A stretch of 14,411 nt of DNA. It comes from Promethearchaeota archaeon. GTDB lineage: Archaea > Asgardarchaeota > Lokiarchaeia > Sigyniarchaeales > SOKP01. The stretch is from positions 1 through 14,411 of the forward strand of contig JAFGOA010000085.1 of the NCBI GenBank assembly GCA_016926735.1, read 5' to 3'. Position numbers and translations under genes: made by a program. The notes beneath the pieces were generated by a model. It saw only the letters and a list, made by a program, of their open reading frames with translations, did not search any database and was not told where the DNA came from. Positions 3,844 through 14,411 of this stretch are shown piece by piece; the stretch's first letter is position 1; every line of letters starts with the position of its first letter.

Positions 3844-3935
3844 TTTAATATATAATAATACTTAAATATATTAAAACTTATGATTCAATTTTGTTATCAA
3901 TTCTAAAATATAATAAAATAAGAAAAAAGATAAAG

Positions 3936-4125
3936 CGCCCCCGGCTTTCTCTAATATCTGTAATTCAGATATTATATGGGACTCGTTATGCTCAGATATT
4001 TAGCATAAACTCGAACATGCGACCGCCCGGTTAACTTCCGGAGGTATTATTTGCTTTAATACCTTAGCCGGGTGCTTTTGGCACACCGTTTATGGCGATG
4101 CTCTACCTAACTGAGCTACGGAGGC
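3936..4125 (-). tRNA. trnN: tRNA-Asn(GTT) with four introns (22/23, 33/34, 59/60, 63/64)
   Basis: Exons 4125-4103, 4076-4066, 4035-4010, 3979-3976 and 3945-3936 join to GCCTCCG TA GCTC AGTTAGGTA GAGC A CCCGG CT GTT AA CCGGG CGGTC GCATG TTCGAGC CATGC CGGGGGC G (74 nt, all four stems paired). Introns 4102-4077 (26 nt), 4065-4036, 4009-3980 and 3975-3946 (30 nt each) are hairpins with BHB/BHL geometry. The intron 1 junction is ambiguous by a few nt. CCA is not encoded. Confidence 0.88.
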
Positions 4126-4140
4126 ATACTTATGTTTTTG

Positions 4141-4243
4141 TGCTTCTGCCGGGATTCGAACCCGGGTCACGAGGGTGAAAGCCTCGGATGCATTGTCCTT
4201 AATTATTAATTAATTAAGTTTGGCCGGACTACACTACAGAAGC
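4141..4243 (-). tRNA. trnE: tRNA-Glu(TTC) with one D-arm intron (~21/22)
   Basis: GCTTCTG TA GTGT AGTCCGGCCAA|GCAT C CGAGG CT TTC AC CCTCG TGAC CCGGG TTCGAAT CCCGG CAGAAGC A. The 28-nt intron at 4219-4192 has an 8-bp hairpin (CTTAATTA/TAATTAAG). Anticodon at 4179-4177. Confidence 0.93.
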
Positions 4244-4597
4244 TTATTTTTTTTTTAATCAATATTACTAGTTTTATTAATCTAATATATAATATTAATC
4301 TGTAATATCCTAAATTATCTAGAAATTAAATATTTTTCTATAAAAGTTATTATTTTTTTTATTCAATAAAAGATTAGATATCTTAACTCATAATTCTTTT
4401 ATTTATTGGAATTAGCAAAAAAAAAATAATTAATAAATTTCCGGAAATTTTGATTCTGATAAAGTTAAAATCCAATTATCTAATTAAATTTATACATCAC
4501 ATGAAATACCGTAATAAATAATATATTTTGATAAATCCAATATTATCAATTAAAAAAAGGTCACTAAAAAGAATTAATAGTTAGGAGAGAAGAAAAA

Positions 4598-4701
4598 TGC
4601 GGGAAGGGAGATTTGAACTCCCGAACTCCTTTGAGAATGGATCTCTTCGAGAATTATCTCTTCTAAGTCCACCGCCTTTGACCATACTTGGCAATTCCCG
4701 C
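4598..4701 (-). tRNA. trnL: tRNA-Leu(TAG) with canonical 37/38 intron
   Basis: GCGGGAA acceptor pairs with TTCCCGC plus discriminator A; long variable arm (CTC/GAG stem); GGGAG TTCAAAT CTCCC T-arm. The 19-nt intron at 4661-4643 forms a BHB (CTTA/GAAG helix, bulges GA|A and AG|A, GAGA/TCTC stem). Confidence 0.92.
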
Positions 4702-4908
4702 TTTTTTATACTATAAGTATATAAATATAACTGCTCCAAATTAATTAAATTTACTATTTAATTACTATTGAAAATTATAAGATTAGAATTAAAAAATAAT
4801 TATGTGATTTAATACTATCATTTATTTATTTTTAAAATTTAAAAGAATAAAAATAAAATAAAGGAATAATATTTGTTTTATTAATGGAAAAAAAAAAGAT
4901 GATAAAGA

Positions 4909-5931: not shown

Positions 5932-7491
5932 TTAGATTTCAATTTTTTTTAAATTTAGATTAGATATTTTATTCAAAATATTTTTCCAAAAAAGAACTAG
6001 TTGGAAGGAATAAAAATCATTTTTCCTTTTAATCTGATATTTTATTATTTCTTTAAGGTATTGATAATTTAATTTTAAACATGTAATCAATGACATATTT
6101 TTACTTGGTCTTACTAAAAGCCCAAAAAAATGTTGATTTATATTAAAAATTTTCCACCAATTTTTATAATAAATCTTTGATCCAAATTTTTCTTCAGCAA
6201 TAACATATAATTTTGAACCAATGAATGCCATATATTTAGAAAAGTCTAAATTTACATTATATTTTTCAACTAATGATTGATCACCATATCTTTTTTTAAG
6301 AAAGAAATCTTTTCCTTGTTCTAATGATAAATTATCTTCACCGGGGGTTCCGATCATATAATAAAATATGATTTTGGAATTAATTCTATTGGACTCCATA
6401 ATTAATTTTCTTGTTTTTTCTAAATAGTGATTTATAGTTCTTTGTAATATATTTTTATCTTTAGCAAGGAATTTCTCCATTCTGTATAACATTAATTCAG
6501 AAGTAAAATCCAATCCAAAATGAGGGATAATATCTAATTCTTTATAATGATATAAATCTTTCAAGGTGCAATATTCAATTCTATCATAGACGATTATTTT
6601 TAATGATTTTTTTGTATTTTTCTTATTTATTTTTTTTAGTTCTTTGAAAAATAATTCTCTTTTAGATCTTTTAGGAAGAAAGAACATATCAGTGATGTGG
6701 ATTTGATTAATAGATAACCAGGAAGTTTTTTTTAAAATTTCTATTTCTTTAATACATAATTTTATAGATTTTATTCTTACTTTTTTATAACAAATAGTAG
6801 TTCCGGATGTTCCACAATAGCTACAACGAAAGATACATCCTCTAGAAAAATCAAGATATAATTTATCTATAACATGTTTATATCTTTTAAATAAACCAAA
6901 ATCAATTAATGGAATATCATTAAGATTTTTAACCATTTCTGTTTTAAGAATAATACTTGGTTCTTTCATATTTTTTCTTAGATTTATATTCTTTTCTATT
7001 AATCCTCTTATTAATTTATAAAAGGGTATTTCACCTTCCTCTTTGATTATAAAATCAAAAGGAGTTTCATTTTTTGGATATTCTTCAAAAAAGTAATTGG
7101 GAATATTATTTATATGAAAATCTTCTGGAACTATACTTGGATGTACTCCTCCAACTACAATAAGAGTGTTATGAAAAATTTTTTTTATTAAGAAAGCTAC
7201 TTCAACGGAATTTAAATAATTAAATGATGTATAACAAGAAATAGCAACTAGATCAAAAGGAAATTTATTATATAATTTATTAAGTAATTTTTTAAGAGCA
7301 GCTCTATAGAGATCTATTTTTTCTGGACAAAATTGAGGCAAATTTTCATGTCTTAAATCTAAATATTTCTCTTTAATAGTAAATTTAAATTCTTTATTTT
7401 TTAAATTAAGATAATTAGAGATTCTTGCAAAATTTAATAATAGATGTGAATTTGCCCAAAAAGCAAAAGGATGAATATATAGGATCCTCAT
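5932..7491 (-). CDS. Cobalamin-binding radical SAM protein (class B methylase-like)
   Basis: N-terminal B12-binding domain motifs DLVAISCYTS, VVGGVHPS and EEGEIPF; SRGCIFRCSYC (CxxxCxxC); YMIGTPGE. Confidence 0.88.
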   Translation of the reverse strand: MRILYIHPFAFWANSHLLLNFARISNYLNLKNKEFKFTIKEKYLDLRHENLPQFCPEKIDLYRAALKKLLNKLYNKFPFDLVAISCYTSFNYLNSVEVAFLIKKIFHNTLIVVGGVHPSIVPEDFHINNIPNYFFEEYPKNETPFDFIIKEEGEIPFYKLIRGLIEKNINLRKNMKEPSIILKTEMVKNLNDIPLIDFGLFKRYKHVIDKLYLDFSRGCIFRCSYCGTSGTTICYKKVRIKSIKLCIKEIEILKKTSWLSINQIHITDMFFLPKRSKRELFFKELKKINKKNTKKSLKIIVYDRIEYCTLKDLYHYKELDIIPHFGLDFTSELMLYRMEKFLAKDKNILQRTINHYLEKTRKLIMESNRINSKIIFYYMIGTPGEDNLSLEQGKDFFLKKRYGDQSLVEKYNVNLDFSKYMAFIGSKLYVIAEEKFGSKIYYKNWWKIFNINQHFFGLLVRPSKNMSLITCLKLNYQYLKEIIKYQIKRKNDFYSFQLVLFWKNILNKISNLNLKKIEI

Positions 7492-7611
7492 CTGATTGAT
7501 TTTTTTTTTGATTAAAGATAGTATTTTTTCTTATCTATCTTTAAAAAATTCCCTAAAAATTCAATTATATTAAATTGAAAAAACATTATTAATTATTTTA
7601 ATGTATTAATT

Positions 7612-8100
7612 ATGAATATTGAAAAAGAAAACATAATTCCGATCCCAAAATTATATTGTATAAGATATATTGAGGGGGGGTGTGCAAAAAATAAATGCAC
7701 AGCAGTTAAATTAAAGAATTTAAATTTATTAAAAATAGTAAATAAGATATATGGTTCTTTAAAAAAATCAATCATTCTTAATCCTTTAGCTAAAAAAGAA
7801 ATTTCTTCAAGAGATCGAGAGATTATTTTAAAAAATGGGCTAATTGTAATAGATTGCTCTTGGAAACATTTTTTCACAATAAAAAATTTTGATGAAGATG
7901 TATCTCGTAAATTACCTCCATTAATAGCTGCAAATCCAGTTAATTATGGGAAATGGGAAAAACTAAGTTCTGCAGAAGCACTATCAGCTGCACTTTATAT
8001 TGCAGGATTTAGAGATCATGCTATACTTATCCTTTCAAAATTTTCATGGGGTCGAGAATTCTTTAGAATAAATAATTTTAAGAATAATAGTATATGTTAA
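7612..8100 (+). CDS. tsr3: 16S rRNA aminocarboxypropyltransferase Tsr3
   Basis: KCTAVKL, IDCSW, RKLPPLIAANPVNYGK..KLSSAEALSAAL and FSWGREF are family signatures. Confidence 0.93.
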   Translation: MNIEKENIIPIPKLYCIRYIEGGCAKNKCTAVKLKNLNLLKIVNKIYGSLKKSIILNPLAKKEISSRDREIILKNGLIVIDCSWKHFFTIKNFDEDVSRKLPPLIAANPVNYGKWEKLSSAEALSAALYIAGFRDHAILILSKFSWGREFFRINNFKNNSIC

Positions 8101-8140
8101 CTTAATTCTTTATAAAAAATATAAAAAAAAAGAGAAAGAT

Positions 8141-9742
8141 TTATTCTCCACCTTTAGAAAGTCTTGAAGCAGCTATTACATCATCAATTTTAAGGATCAT
8201 AGTGGCTACTTCTGTAGCAGATAGAATTGCTTGCGTTAGAACAGCTAAAGGTTCAATAACTCCTAATTTAATCATATCATCTGGTTTACCTAAATCAATA
8301 TTAATACCAAATGAGCTTCCTTCTTCAAACTCATGTTTGGATCTTAATTCTACGATTAAATCAATAGGATTAAATCCTGCATTTTCAGCTAAAGTCTTTG
8401 GAATAATTTCTAAAGCATTTGCATACACTTCAATTGCTAATTGTTCTCTTCCTCCAATGGTTCTTGCATAAGTTTTTAGTCTCTTTGCTAATTCGATTTC
8501 TGTTGCTCCACCTCCAGGTAAGATATATGGAACTTCTATAGTAGCTTTAACAACAGATAATGCATCATGAATCATTCTTTCTGCTTCATCAACAACATGT
8601 TCAATACCTGCTCTGATGAGAATACTAACTGTTTTTGGAGATGCACATTCGGATATAAAAATCATGTTATCATTACCAATTTTCTTTTCTTCAACTTTAC
8701 CGGCATATCCAAGGTCTTCTGAAGTAATCTCAAAAATGTTATTTAATATTTTAGCATTTGTAGCTCTAGCTAATTTTTCCATATCAGATTTTTTTACTCT
8801 TCGAACTGCCACAATATTTTCTTTAGCAAGAAAATTTTGTGCTTTATCATCAATACCTTTTTGACAAAAAACAACGTTAGCTCCTATTTCTTTGAGTTTG
8901 ATAACTCGTTTGTTTAACATATTGGTTTCTTCAGCCAAAAATTTATTTATTTGATCAGGAGTTTGAATTTTTATTTCAGCATCAAATTCAGTTTTTTCAA
9001 CTTCTAAAGCAGAATTAATCAATGCTATTTTTGCATTTTTTAGTAATTTAGGCATCATAGGATTTATTATCTCTTTGTCAACTATCATACCATTAATTAT
9101 CTCAGTATCAAGTAGGCTTTTTCCTTCTTTTTTAATTATTTGAAGTTGATCTAAATCAATAAAAACATTCATACCTCTTTTCTCTTTTATTTGAGAAACA
9201 GATTTTACTACAATATTAGCAAAATGACTTTTTGCACTTGATATTAATTTACTATTCATAGAAGTTTCTGCAACTTTTTTCAGGCTATCTATATCATCAA
9301 TTGAAATTTGATTTGCAAGCTTTTGTAAAATCTCTTTACTTTTTACTAATGCTTTCCTATACCCTCGAAAGATAATAGTTGGATGGACTTGTTGTTCCAT
9401 TAATTCTTGAGCCAGATTTAATAATTCTCCTGCAAGAATTACACTTGTTGTTGTTCCATCACCAACTTTTTCATCTTGAGTTTTAGCAACTTCTACAATC
9501 ATTTTAGCAGCAGGATGCTCTACATCAATTGTATCTAAGATAGTTTTTCCATCATTTGTAATAGTGACATCTCCAAGAGAATCAACAATCATTTTATCCA
9601 TTCCCTTTGGGCCTAATGTTGTTTTAACAGATTCGGATACAGCTTTTGCTGCAGAAATGTTATTTTTTTGGGCATCTTTTCCTCTTTTTCTATCAGTCCC
9701 TTCTTTTAAGATAAGTACGGGGACACCAGATAATTGCGCCAT
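8141..9742 (-). CDS. ths: Thermosome (group II chaperonin) subunit
   Basis: [47 protein letters not shown] and MILKIDDVI motifs. Confidence 0.97.
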
Positions 9743-11482: not shown

Positions 11483-12694
11483 ATGACTTTATTAATTGGT
11501 ATTATAGGAAAACCAAGTTCTGGAAAATCTACTTTTTTAAACGCTTCTTGTTTAACACATGTAGAAATGAGTGAATTGCCTTTTACAACTATAAAACCGA
11601 ATAAAGGTGTAGCAACTGTAAGAAGTAAATGTGTTTGTAAGGAATTAAATCTAATAGATAACCCTCAAAATTCTTTATGCATAAATGGCGTGAGATTAAT
11701 TCCAATTAATTTATTAGATGTGGCAGGTCTTGTTCCAGATGCTCACAAAGGTAAAGGATTAGGAAATCAATTTTTAAACGATCTAAGTAAAGCAGATATA
11801 CTAATTCATATTATAGATACAACAGGCTCTTTAGATAAAACTGGTAATAGAACTATTTCAGGATCCCATGATCCCTATGAAGATATCTTATTTTTAGAAC
11901 AGGAGATTAATTTATGGTATAAAAAAATTATAGAAAGAGAAGATTGGAATAAATTTACAAGAGCATTTTCAAGAATTCAAAAAGATTTTATTAGAGCATT
12001 AGGTGAGCGTTTGTCTGGATTAAGAATTACCCCATATCATATAAAAAGGGCACTAAAAGATTCTAATTTAGAATCTAAAAATCCTAATGAATGGTCTGAT
12101 GATGATCTATATATTTATTCAAAAATTTTAAGAGAAATATCGAAACCAATAGTTTTAGTTGCAAATAAAATAGATAAAGATAGCAGTATAGAGAATTTAA
12201 AAAAAATAAAAGAAAAAAATAAAAAAGAGATAATTCCATGTAGCGCATTAACTGAATATATTTTAAGGCAATATGAGGAACAAAAAATCATAAGTTATTT
12301 GCCAGGATCACCGAGTTTTGAAATATTAAAACCAGAAAAACTAAATCCAAAAGAATTAGAAACATTAGACAAAATAAAAGAAAAAATTCTGCAAGAATTT
12401 GGAGGTACTGGGATTCAAAAAGTCTTTAAATATGCAATTTTTGATATATTAGAACAAATTTGTGTCTATCCAGTCTCAGATATAAATAAATTTACAGATA
12501 ATAATAATAATGTATTACCAGACGTTTTCTTGATAAAAAAAGGAACAAAATTAATTGATTTTGTGAGAGATAAGATACATAGTGACTTAGCAGATCATTT
12601 TATTCATGGAATAGATGCCAAAACTAAGAAAAGATTAGGAGAAAATTATGAATTATCTCATAATGATATTATTAAGATTGTCTCTGCAAAATAA
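11483..12694 (+). CDS. ychF: Obg-family YchF/Ola1-like NTPase, archaeal type, with C-terminal TGS domain
   Basis: GKPSSGKST (G1), PFTTIKPN (G2), DVAGLVPDAHKGKGLGNQFL (G3), NKID (G4) and IHSDLA..DIIKIV (TGS). Confidence 0.93.
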   Translation: MTLLIGIIGKPSSGKSTFLNASCLTHVEMSELPFTTIKPNKGVATVRSKCVCKELNLIDNPQNSLCINGVRLIPINLLDVAGLVPDAHKGKGLGNQFLNDLSKADILIHIIDTTGSLDKTGNRTISGSHDPYEDILFLEQEINLWYKKIIEREDWNKFTRAFSRIQKDFIRALGERLSGLRITPYHIKRALKDSNLESKNPNEWSDDDLYIYSKILREISKPIVLVANKIDKDSSIENLKKIKEKNKKEIIPCSALTEYILRQYEEQKIISYLPGSPSFEILKPEKLNPKELETLDKIKEKILQEFGGTGIQKVFKYAIFDILEQICVYPVSDINKFTDNNNNVLPDVFLIKKGTKLIDFVRDKIHSDLADHFIHGIDAKTKKRLGENYELSHNDIIKIVSAK

Positions 12695-12704
12695 TGAATA
12701 ATCT

Positions 12705-12803
12705 CTATTCTTCTTTTGAGGTAAGAAGAATATAAACTAAAATGACAATTAACAATATAATACCTAAGAACGTAAGACTAAATCGAAACAATTCCTCATC
12801 CAA
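12705..12803 (-). CDS. Putative 32-aa single-transmembrane small protein (absent from the ORF track)
   Basis: TTG start 6 nt after AGGTGAGG, which is complementary to the 16S 3' tail seen in this window. Translation: MDEELFRFSLTFLGIILLIVILVYILLTSKEE*. Confidence 0.55.
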   Translation of the reverse strand: MDEELFRFSLTFLGIILLIVILVYILLTSKEE

Positions 12804-12983
12804 TTTAGTCCTCACCTTGAAATTTTTGTTTCATTTTTGATATTTTTCATTATTAATAGTTTTATAGATCTTATTGTGAAGAATATTAAAAATAGTTATT
12901 TATTTTTTCTTCTATAAATCATTGATATTGTCCTATTTTAATGACAAATTTTATTTTAAGTTAATGGTATTAGTACTCTTCTT

Positions 12984-13289
12984 TTAGGGAGGTGGTGGAA
13001 TCAAATCATATATTATATCCATGATTATTGGATATCCTAAGGCATAAGTAATGATCATACCACCAATAGCTATAATAAAAGCGAGAATTGGTTTCCATTT
13101 CTGTTCAGTTTCATTCCATCCCAAGGCACCAATTATAATTGTTAATAATGCCATTCCACTAACAATAAAAACACCAAATGCACCTTCTCTTGGTATTATC
13201 TCCATAAAAGCTAGAACACATAATAATGGACCAATTAAACTTATTATTGCTAAAAGAAGAGCAATGTTAGCATATTTAGCTTTTTCCAT
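12984..13289 (-). CDS. Small integral membrane protein (~3 TM helices), function unknown
   Basis: 101 aa with three hydrophobic segments and a C-terminal PPPP. Confidence 0.75.
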   Translation of the reverse strand: MEKAKYANIALLLAIISLIGPLLCVLAFMEIIPREGAFGVFIVSGMALLTIIIGALGWNETEQKWKPILAFIIAIGGMIITYALGYPIIMDIIYDLIPPPP

Positions 13290-13526
13290 ATCAATAAATC
13301 TCTTTTTAGTTATTTTTTTATCATAACATGAAATATATATATTTTAAATTTATGGTAATTCTTAAAAATATATCTTAAATAATCACATTAGATAGACTTT
13401 AGTTATCTAATCTAAATATATAGAAAAACAAGAGGGTCAATATATAAATCCTTATTAAAATTTATCTATTGCGTATGAACCCTGGAGAGGTAATAATGAA
13501 TCAATAAGTAAGTATGTTACATATAG

Positions 13527-13673
13527 GGTAAACGAGTCAAATGAGGATTATTTCAATCATAAAGAGAAGTTAAAATCAATGTAGATGTAAATGGAGCAAT
13601 GAATATTTTAAGAAAAGTAGTTCCCATAGCCTTCAATGATAAGGAAATAGAAGTGATGGTATTATCGCCTTGA
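13527..13673 (+). pseudogene. tnpB: Decayed IS200/IS605-family tnpB C-terminal fragment
   Basis: One frame reads GKRVK*GLFQS*REVKINVDVNGAMNILRKVVPIAF..P*. This matches the TnpB C-terminal pattern GKRxKRGLF...INADxNGAxNILRK (RuvC-III region), with two in-frame stops. Confidence 0.8.
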
Positions 13674-13781: not shown

Positions 13782-13914
13782 TGGACCTGACGGGAATTGA
13801 ACCCGTGACCTCTTGAGTGCAATTCTTGCATAAAGTGCTTTACTTTTTCTGTGTCAAGCGATTTTGAATCAAAACCTTTCAATAGGTCAAAATCTTCCAC
13901 TGATCTACAGGCCC
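13782..13914 (-). tRNA. trnA: tRNA-Ala(TGC) with two introns (22/23 and 32/33)
   Basis: Mature GGGCCTG TA GATC AGTGGAA GATC G CTTGA CT TGC AC TCAAG AGGTC ACGGG TTCAATT CCCGT CAGGTCC A (72 nt) with the G3:U70 Ala identity pair. Introns are 13893-13863 (31 nt, helix TGGA/TTCA) and 13852-13823 (30 nt, helix CTTG/CAAG). Confidence 0.92.

Positions 13915-14009: not shown

Positions 14010-14411
<402 letters not shown>

Follow-up and report, generated by a model that had tools for sequence, protein, structure and literature searches.

The BHB motif of tRNA introns is built from four helix bases, a 5' bulge that comprises two exon bases and one intron base, and a 3' bulge that comprises the last two intron bases and one exon base. 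Several introns of this kind can interrupt one gene, and the nested multiple-intron pre-tRNAs of Crenarchaeota/Thermoproteales are reportedly the subject of work by Sugahara and colleagues in 2007 and by Tocchini-Valentini and colleagues. According to papers that cite such work, the motif of the last intron in these nested pre-tRNAs forms only after the others have been processed (PMC3728597 and PMC3978253, citing Sugahara 2007/2008 and Tocchini-Valentini 2009). In ARMAN-2, the description of pre-tRNA-Pro(GGG) places two adjacent BHB introns in the T-loop, at 53/54 and 59/60 (Fujishima et al. 2011, PMC3239211). The tRNA genes of Asgard archaea are described as carrying multiple non-canonical introns, up to five per gene and many of them in the T-arm (PMC11291895, Valentin-Alvarado et al. 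2024; Goswami et al. 2026, preprint 10.64898/2026.10.13.758758), and the motif geometry given above agrees with the definition stated in that preprint. Neither tRNA introns that are nested and ordered nor heavily interrupted tRNA genes in Asgard archaea are thus new to the literature. The gene considered here, like other interrupted Asgard tRNA genes, contains multiple introns, two of which fall in the T-arm.

This gene lies in a stretch of 14,411 nucleotides from a Lokiarchaeial genome (the window), in which it occupies positions 4125-3936 of the minus strand and consists of five exons and four BHB-type introns of 26, 30, 30 and 30 nt. The joined exons form a 74-nt tRNA-Asn(GUU) with a flawless canonical cloverleaf (ARAGORN score 121.6), comprising a 7-bp acceptor stem, a D-arm (GCTC/GAGC), an anticodon stem (CCCGG/CCGGG), a variable loop (CGGTC), a T-arm that reads GCATG-TTCGAGC-CATGC (T-stem GCATG/CATGC, T-loop TTCGAGC) and G as discriminator. 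The exons reach 66% G+C, against 26% for the genome. The unspliced gene was missed in the window by ARAGORN and by Rfam at the gathering score because the four inserts hide it; their removal restores the canonical tRNA, and intron-free orthologues with identical exon sequence occur in relatives (L016-L018). A functional tRNA-Asn(GUU) gene is the best explanation of the locus. In two metatranscriptome runs (X21, X22) of the study that is the probable source, no RNA contig was found on 3850-4750, a result that is uninformative on expression.

Another tRNA, at 4141-4243 on the same strand, sits 15 nt upstream of the tRNA-Asn gene and is possibly co-transcribed with it; it scores 52.9 bits with the Rfam tRNA model and is read by ARAGORN as Val(GAC) with an intron. 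Besides this neighbour, the window contains intron-containing tRNA genes at 4598-4701 and 13782-13914, both on the minus strand, and at its edge (14011-14411) lies an archaeal 16S rRNA gene, of which it holds the 3' end. This end of the SSU rRNA and the Arf/Roc small GTPases encoded on contig C157 are the host markers that were seen.

Exon 1 (4103-4125, on the minus strand, as are all parts of the gene) holds positions 1-22, which include the 5' strands of the acceptor stem and D-stem as well as the D-loop. Intron 1 (4077-4102, 26 nt) interrupts the D-arm, where its junction is ambiguous and may fall anywhere from 22/23 to 26/27, because AGCA is repeated on both sides. Read by hand, it forms a helix GGT(A)/(T)GCC and an inner hairpin of 5-6 bp, compatible with more than one BHB register. 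If the best 4-bp helix found by hand, GGTA/TGCC, is taken, the predicted cuts leave behind two bases too many; a canonical D-arm is obtained in a register with only 3/4 central pairs. Exon 2 (4066-4076, positions 23-33) is followed by intron 2 (4036-4065, 30 nt, at 33/34), which combines a central helix CCGG/CCGG (4/4 pairs) with an inner helix of 8 bp and has no outer helix. The helix-bulge-helix of intron 2 is seen in the unconstrained minimum-energy fold.

The T-arm is divided among the remaining three exons. Exon 3 (4010-4035, positions 34-59) includes the 5' strand of the T-stem, GCATG (4020-4016), together with TTCGAG. Intron 3 (3980-4009, 30 nt, at 59/60) consists in order of T, TTATGCT (4008-4002), a loop, AGCATAA (3992-3986), CGAG (3985-3982) and TC (3981-3980). 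Exon 4 (3976-3979, positions 60-63) is only CCAT, of which C60 and CAT are conserved in the intron-free relatives (L016-L018); the assignment of these four bases to an exon, made in the original prediction, is borne out by the tRNA-Asn that the joined exons give. Intron 4 (3946-3975, 30 nt, at 63/64) consists of A, TAATATCTG (3974-3966), AATTA, CAGATATTA (3960-3952), GAGA (3951-3948) and AA (3947-3946). Exon 5 (3936-3945, positions 64-73) supplies GC, the acceptor 3' strand CGGGGGC and the discriminator G. Two other ways of dividing the T-arm were rejected. If it is read as one long intron with TATGC as the 3' strand, the resulting 8-nt T-loop is non-canonical and the intron-free relatives have C60-CATGC; if the intron 3 junction is moved by one base, T is placed at position 60, where the relatives conserve C60.

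In the motif of intron 3, TTCG (54-57) pairs with CGAG (3985-3982) to form a central helix of 4/4 pairs, one of them G-U, which is accompanied by an inner helix of 7 bp and a 3' bulge of T, C and C60. As long as intron 4 is present, the outer helix has 3 bp (G53-C61, U52-A62 and A51-U63). Once intron 4 is removed it becomes the 5-bp T-stem, and in the predicted structures the anticipated lengthening to the full GCATG/CATGC is indeed obtained. In the motif of intron 4, T3981, C3980, C3979 and C3978 face G3951, A3950, G3949 and A3948, giving 3/4 central pairs and a C60.A mismatch between an inner helix of 9 bp and an outer helix of 1 bp. The intron 4 motif of g1, the window's own genus, is relaxed, as its central helix has 3/4 pairs with a C.A mismatch and its outer helix is 1 bp long; the rule given in preprint 10.64898/2026.10.13.758758 likewise classes 3/4 central pairs as 'relaxed'.

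The helix of intron 4 overlaps intron 3 because it needs four bases upstream of the bulge and the exon is only 4 nt long. It reaches 3/4 central pairs only when the last two bases of intron 3 are counted, and junction-anchored pairing agrees with the earlier proposal that TCCC/GAGA borrows TC from the end of that intron. Without intron 3, the strand becomes A58 G59 C60 C61 and 1/4 central pairs is left, which is the collapse to AGCC/GAGA that had been foreseen. The strand TCCC (3978-3981), made up of the last two intron 3 bases and of C60 and C61, is the 5' strand of the central helix of intron 4; the same four bases provide the 3' bulge of intron 3 (T, C, C60) and the pair C61-G53, the first of its outer helix. 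The BHB motifs of introns 3 and 4 share 3981-3978, and it is impossible for both to be cleavable at once. The mutual exclusion that was predicted from the place of TC in the intron 3 bulge holds on these shared bases.

The arrangement was followed in relatives by locus BLAST against 41 genomes (own genome included) and spliced alignment. All four introns are kept in 4/4 genomes of g1 (own genome included), with 84-98% identity across the locus; the exons are nearly invariant and the introns variable, and in one genome (G002, where G-numbers denote individual genomes) a G-C pair of the intron 3 inner helix has changed to A-T on both sides, a compensatory change. Exact-pattern searches of 135 family genomes found the double intron with CCAT between in 13 (g1 4/4, g11 4/54, g2 5/42), the 63/64 intron alone in 17 (g5 4/10, g11 4/54, g2 9/42) and the 59/60 intron alone in 44, with 45 loci in six of 13 genera (g11 30/54, g2 9/42). 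Both T-arm introns also exist singly, and all combinations occur within g11 and g2. Since exact T-arm words were required, these searches missed other variants, such as L010. One locus (L006/G023) was parsed by hand, and four g2 double-intron loci (L040-L042, L044) were mis-parsed by the spliced aligner. A 14th match to the double-intron pattern (L031 in G044) was discarded as a chance match, as there is no tRNA 5' half upstream. In a scan of wider genome contigs with a pattern that proved too loose, the matches listed included chance bacterial ones and no further cases. Kept in 4/4 g1 genomes and recurring in two other genera, the double T-arm arrangement is, on this comparative evidence, not due to chance.

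Some relatives depart from these patterns. In the tRNA-Asn gene L010 (G018, genus g5) the insert at 63/64 measures 60 nt, compared with ~30 nt in the other genes, and its end does not fit their GGAA-type central helix; it may represent an intron within an intron or a different motif. Four genomes (G129, G055, G087 and G016) have two tRNA-Asn loci with different intron sets, of which G129 combines a double-intron copy with one that carries the 63/64 intron only. Such paired loci may be true paralogues, or else the assemblies mix strains.

The bases with which intron 4 pairs provide a test of the order of removal. If recognition of intron 4 comes first, its positions n-3 and n-2 should match the final two bases of intron 3; if it follows the loss of intron 3, they should match N59 and A58. 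The pairs were counted by junction-anchored scripts in the 13 double-intron genes (26 pairs), and a MAFFT alignment was not used for this purpose because a 1-nt difference in the length of g2 intron 4 landed in the acceptor stem. Position n-3 forms a Watson-Crick pair with the final base of intron 3, and n-2 with the base before it, in 26/26 cases (13/13 genes). The covariation rests on three lineages, each a genus with its own dinucleotides: g1 has TC/GA, g11 TT/AA and g2 AA/TT. With A58/N59 as partners, the two positions yield 6 Watson-Crick pairs, 3 G-U pairs and 17 mismatches (n=26). When the intron 3 end of one lineage is combined with the intron 4 end of another, 2 Watson-Crick pairs and 1 G-U pair result from 12, and the chance of six lineage-level Watson-Crick pairs is ~4e-4, estimated from base composition. 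Owing to the A or T runs with which intron 4 terminates, 22/26 Watson-Crick pairs are still obtained with a partner slid by +1.

Genes that carry one of the two introns complete this comparison. In the intron-4-only genes (n=17), n-3 pairs with N59 in 17/17 (12 Watson-Crick, 5 G-U), as G59-C in two genomes and as T59-A or T59.G in the others. This pairing, including the C opposite G59, means that the helix of intron 4 tracks whatever base stands upstream of C60. Within g2, closely similar introns 4 end in GGAAAA where intron 3 is missing and in GGTTTA where intron 3 ends in AA. The 3' bulge dinucleotide of the intron-3-only genes (n=45) is AA in 35, AT in 4, TT in 3, AG in 2, TA in 1 and TC in 0. 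Perfect pairing with the end of intron 3, poor pairing with the exon bases, and pairing with N59 throughout the intron-4-only genes together point to recognition of intron 4 before intron 3 leaves. As far as covariation can tell, intron 4 is evidently recognised with intron 3 still present, and the likely order of removal would be intron 4, then intron 3.

Folding was modelled with ViennaRNA at 37 and 20 C; all probabilities below are nearest-neighbour estimates without protein and are to be read loosely. In the full-length precursor of the window, the intron 3 motif has a probability, P(BHB3), of ~0.007-0.02 and the intron 4 motif, P(BHB4), one of ~0.009, so that neither is clearly preferred. 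When intron 4 is removed from the full-length molecule, the strict BHB of intron 3 becomes the minimum-energy fold, with a probability of ~0.3 at 37 C and 0.2 at 20 C, compared with 0.01-0.06 before removal in the full-length and mini-substrate models. T-arm mini-substrates were modelled for all 13 double-intron genes. Those of g1 give a P(BHB3) of 0.03-0.06 and a P(BHB4) of 0.006-0.02 at full length, and P(BHB3) rises to 0.12-0.44 after intron 4 removal. In g11 and g2, P(BHB4) at full length is 0.003-0.12 and P(BHB3) is 4-200 times lower, increasing more than 100-fold after intron 4 removal. Loss of intron 3 lowers the intron 4 motif ~10- to 6000-fold in 12/13 substrates, a range spanned by g11 and g2; the reduction is ~170- to 570-fold in three g1 genes, and for the window's own gene, in which a single central pair is enforced, it is ~2-fold. 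The models agree that removal of intron 4 would promote the intron 3 motif in all genera, and that intron 4 would come first in g11 and g2. For g1 they predict no thermodynamic preference for intron 4, and any order there would have to stem from the reverse path being unproductive.

We regard it as fairly probable that the main productive path removes intron 4 first and intron 3 second. The transcript would pass through four rounds of cutting and joining, the cuts being made by the archaeal splicing endonuclease (a two-subunit EndA) and the joins by an RNA ligase. Intron 4 would be recognised and cut out with intron 3 in place, its helix being finished by the last two bases of intron 3. Joining of CCAT to GC would then complete the T-stem, and the finished stem would free TC and C60 as a 3' bulge, by which intron 3 would gain a strict helix-bulge-helix-bulge-helix motif and be removed second; the reverse order would be unproductive. 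Because the motifs share bases, the four sites would never be cut together and the 4-nt exon would stay on a larger piece. A likely benefit of this interlock is that CCAT would never be released as a free tetranucleotide. The original prediction went further, in that it called for an obligatory order driven by refolding. Its direction is supported by covariation in 13/13 genes, but neither 'obligatory' nor 'driven by refolding' could be upheld, as the g1 model gives each conformer a few percent, with intron 3 slightly ahead, and the post-removal helix of intron 4 keeps 3/4 pairs in g2 and G061.

The genome encodes two proteins of the EndA family, one of 203 aa on contig C33 and one of 202 aa on contig C100, each with PF01974 and PF02778. 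By eye, the catalytic Tyr/His/Lys are present in one of them and missing from the other. The best PDB matches are 3p1z_B/3ajv_B for the C33 protein and 5x89_A for the C100 protein. Asgard archaea are described as having an (alpha-beta)2 EndA with an L1 loop, which is linked to a broad substrate range (Kaneta et al. 2018, PMC5829648). The two genes fit this type, the heterotetramer and the L1 loop being presumed by analogy with that description. A canonical RtcB (PF01139) was not found in this assembly (G000; 238 contigs, 99% complete). As RtcB is present in 24/26 relatives, including all 3 others of the genus, an assembly gap is the likely reason.

The breadth of such an enzyme leads to the reading that no order is fixed: a broad-specificity (alpha-beta)2 endonuclease would cut either motif, even the degenerate one of intron 4, and both paths would end in mature tRNA. 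Relaxed motifs are described as substrates of (alpha-beta)2 enzymes (PMC3239211, PMC5829648), and in the g1 full-precursor model both conformers are minor and similar. Even before intron 4 is removed, the motif of intron 3 possesses 4 central pairs, and its outer helix is 3 bp long. Moreover, the 3/4 central pairs that intron 4 retains after intron 3 removal in g2 (5 genes) and G061 might permit the reverse order there. However, the central pairs fall to 1/4 in the window's gene and to 2/4 in three g11 genes. Selection has kept all 26 Watson-Crick pairs with the end of intron 3 and not the pairing with N59, whereas the intron-4-only genes pair with N59 without exception. A splicing order that is free in this sense seems unlikely to us.

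The opposite order, in which intron 3 leaves first, would start from a motif that is transcribed earlier and is more stable in g1, and intron 4 would then have to be removed without a central helix. Judged from the order of the gene, the hairpin and central helix of intron 3 are complete before intron 4 is transcribed, and in the g1 mini-substrates P(BHB3) lies 2-5 fold above P(BHB4). In g11 and g2, by contrast, the models favour the intron 4 motif 4-200 fold, and the covariation between the introns is left unexplained. This order would also need helix-free cleavage, a mode that to our knowledge has not been found for EndA. PMC3978253 names the BHB as the dominant element in recognition, and we consider removal of intron 3 before intron 4 very improbable.

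A second tRNA with anticodon GUU, which is intron-free, lies in a tRNA array on contig C157, so the window gene is not demonstrably the sole source of tRNA-Asn. The contig (L232/L233) holds two divergent arrays, at ~7086-8394 (minus) and 12331-13605 (plus), with 21 tRNA genes together. All 21 pass the Rfam gathering score, and 20 are free of introns. Their G+C content is low, that of the Asn(GUU) copy being 47%, as compared with 66% for the spliced tRNA of the window. The arrays flank a gene for a 1031-aa leucine-rich-repeat protein, in surroundings of Asgard type (Arf/Roc GTPases, WD40). The 8 ORFs scanned showed no viral hallmark, and a search of 9 other relatives at E <= 1e-8 did not find the array. 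C157 seems to carry an additional tRNA set that is intron-free, in contrast to the intron-rich tRNA genes elsewhere in the genome. That the window gene is a decaying pseudogene, with tRNA-Asn supplied by the C157 copy (Rfam 60.7 bits), is scarcely credible, given that its joined product is a flawless cloverleaf, that its exons are near-invariant in four g1 genomes while the introns diverge (to 84% overall identity) with compensatory change, and that a C157-type array occurs in 2/3 other g1 genomes and in 0/9 other relatives, none of which is a g11/g2 double-intron genome.

A further-reaching proposal, on which we are evenly divided, is that two neighbouring introns co-evolved into an interlock, in which the final dinucleotide of one forms part of the recognition helix of the other; the order would become strict and the 4-nt exon would never be freed. 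Three Lokiarchaeial genera would have reached it by three compensatory routes, through changes in intron 3, in intron 4 or in both, and censuses that assess motifs only after full splicing would overlook such introns systematically. The known splicing mechanism is left unchanged by the finding. [quoted passage not shown] Natural 'mutants' exist for it, since single genera contain genes with either of introns 3 and 4 alone, with both or with neither. The gene indicates that the splice motif of one intron can be built partly from another, which is a warning for intron annotation and for Asgard tRNA intron statistics that score each intron with all others removed. According to its description, the 2026 census (preprint 10.64898/2026.10.13.758758) scores each intron 'in the fully spliced context', in which the intron 4 of the window, with its 1/4 pairs, would count as not BHB-like.

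A term search of the main text of this preprint found no mention of four introns, micro-exons, or anything sequential or nested, and 'order' is used there for the taxon only; its supplementary tables could list such genes. In the literature on ordered splicing, micro-exons and nested tRNA introns, a search that covered texts other than the 2024 and 2026 Asgard supplements, no Lokiarchaeial arrangement of this type and no BHB completed by a neighbouring intron were found. The ARMAN-2 pre-tRNA-Pro(GGG) resembles the present gene in its adjacent T-loop introns but differs in the exon between them, which has 6 nt compared with 4 here, and in its epsilon2 enzyme; the account of that gene mentions no splicing order or shared bases (PMC3239211). 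The nuclear pre-tRNAs of the red alga Cyanidioschyzon merolae are likewise multi-intron, and they are spliced in a preferred order (Soma et al. 2013, PMC3728597). As described there, RT-PCR of intermediates revealed this order, which correlated with the free energy of the motifs. Their motifs, however, fold independently and are stated not to be nested (PMC3728597), whereas those of the tRNA-Asn gene share bases.

The nested crenarchaeal pre-tRNAs come closest to the present gene. As far as the citing papers describe them, they too have several BHB introns per gene, with a last motif that is completed after the processing of another; they too would be spliced in serial operations of two cuts and one ligation, by a broad-specificity (alpha-beta)2 EndA. 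The tRNA-Asn gene belongs to a Loki-type Asgard lineage, and its order is supported by covariation between introns instead of an enzyme assay. The use of covariation between two neighbouring introns as evidence for splicing order adds to what these systems have taught, as does the point that fully spliced scoring in the 2026 census, as described, would exclude the intron 4 of the window. Unlike the crenarchaeal cases, as the citing papers present them, the intron that would be removed first here has its helix finished by the 3' dinucleotide of its neighbour, across a 4-nt exon. Because the helix of intron 4 is built on the 3' dinucleotide of intron 3, the dependence in this gene runs both ways.
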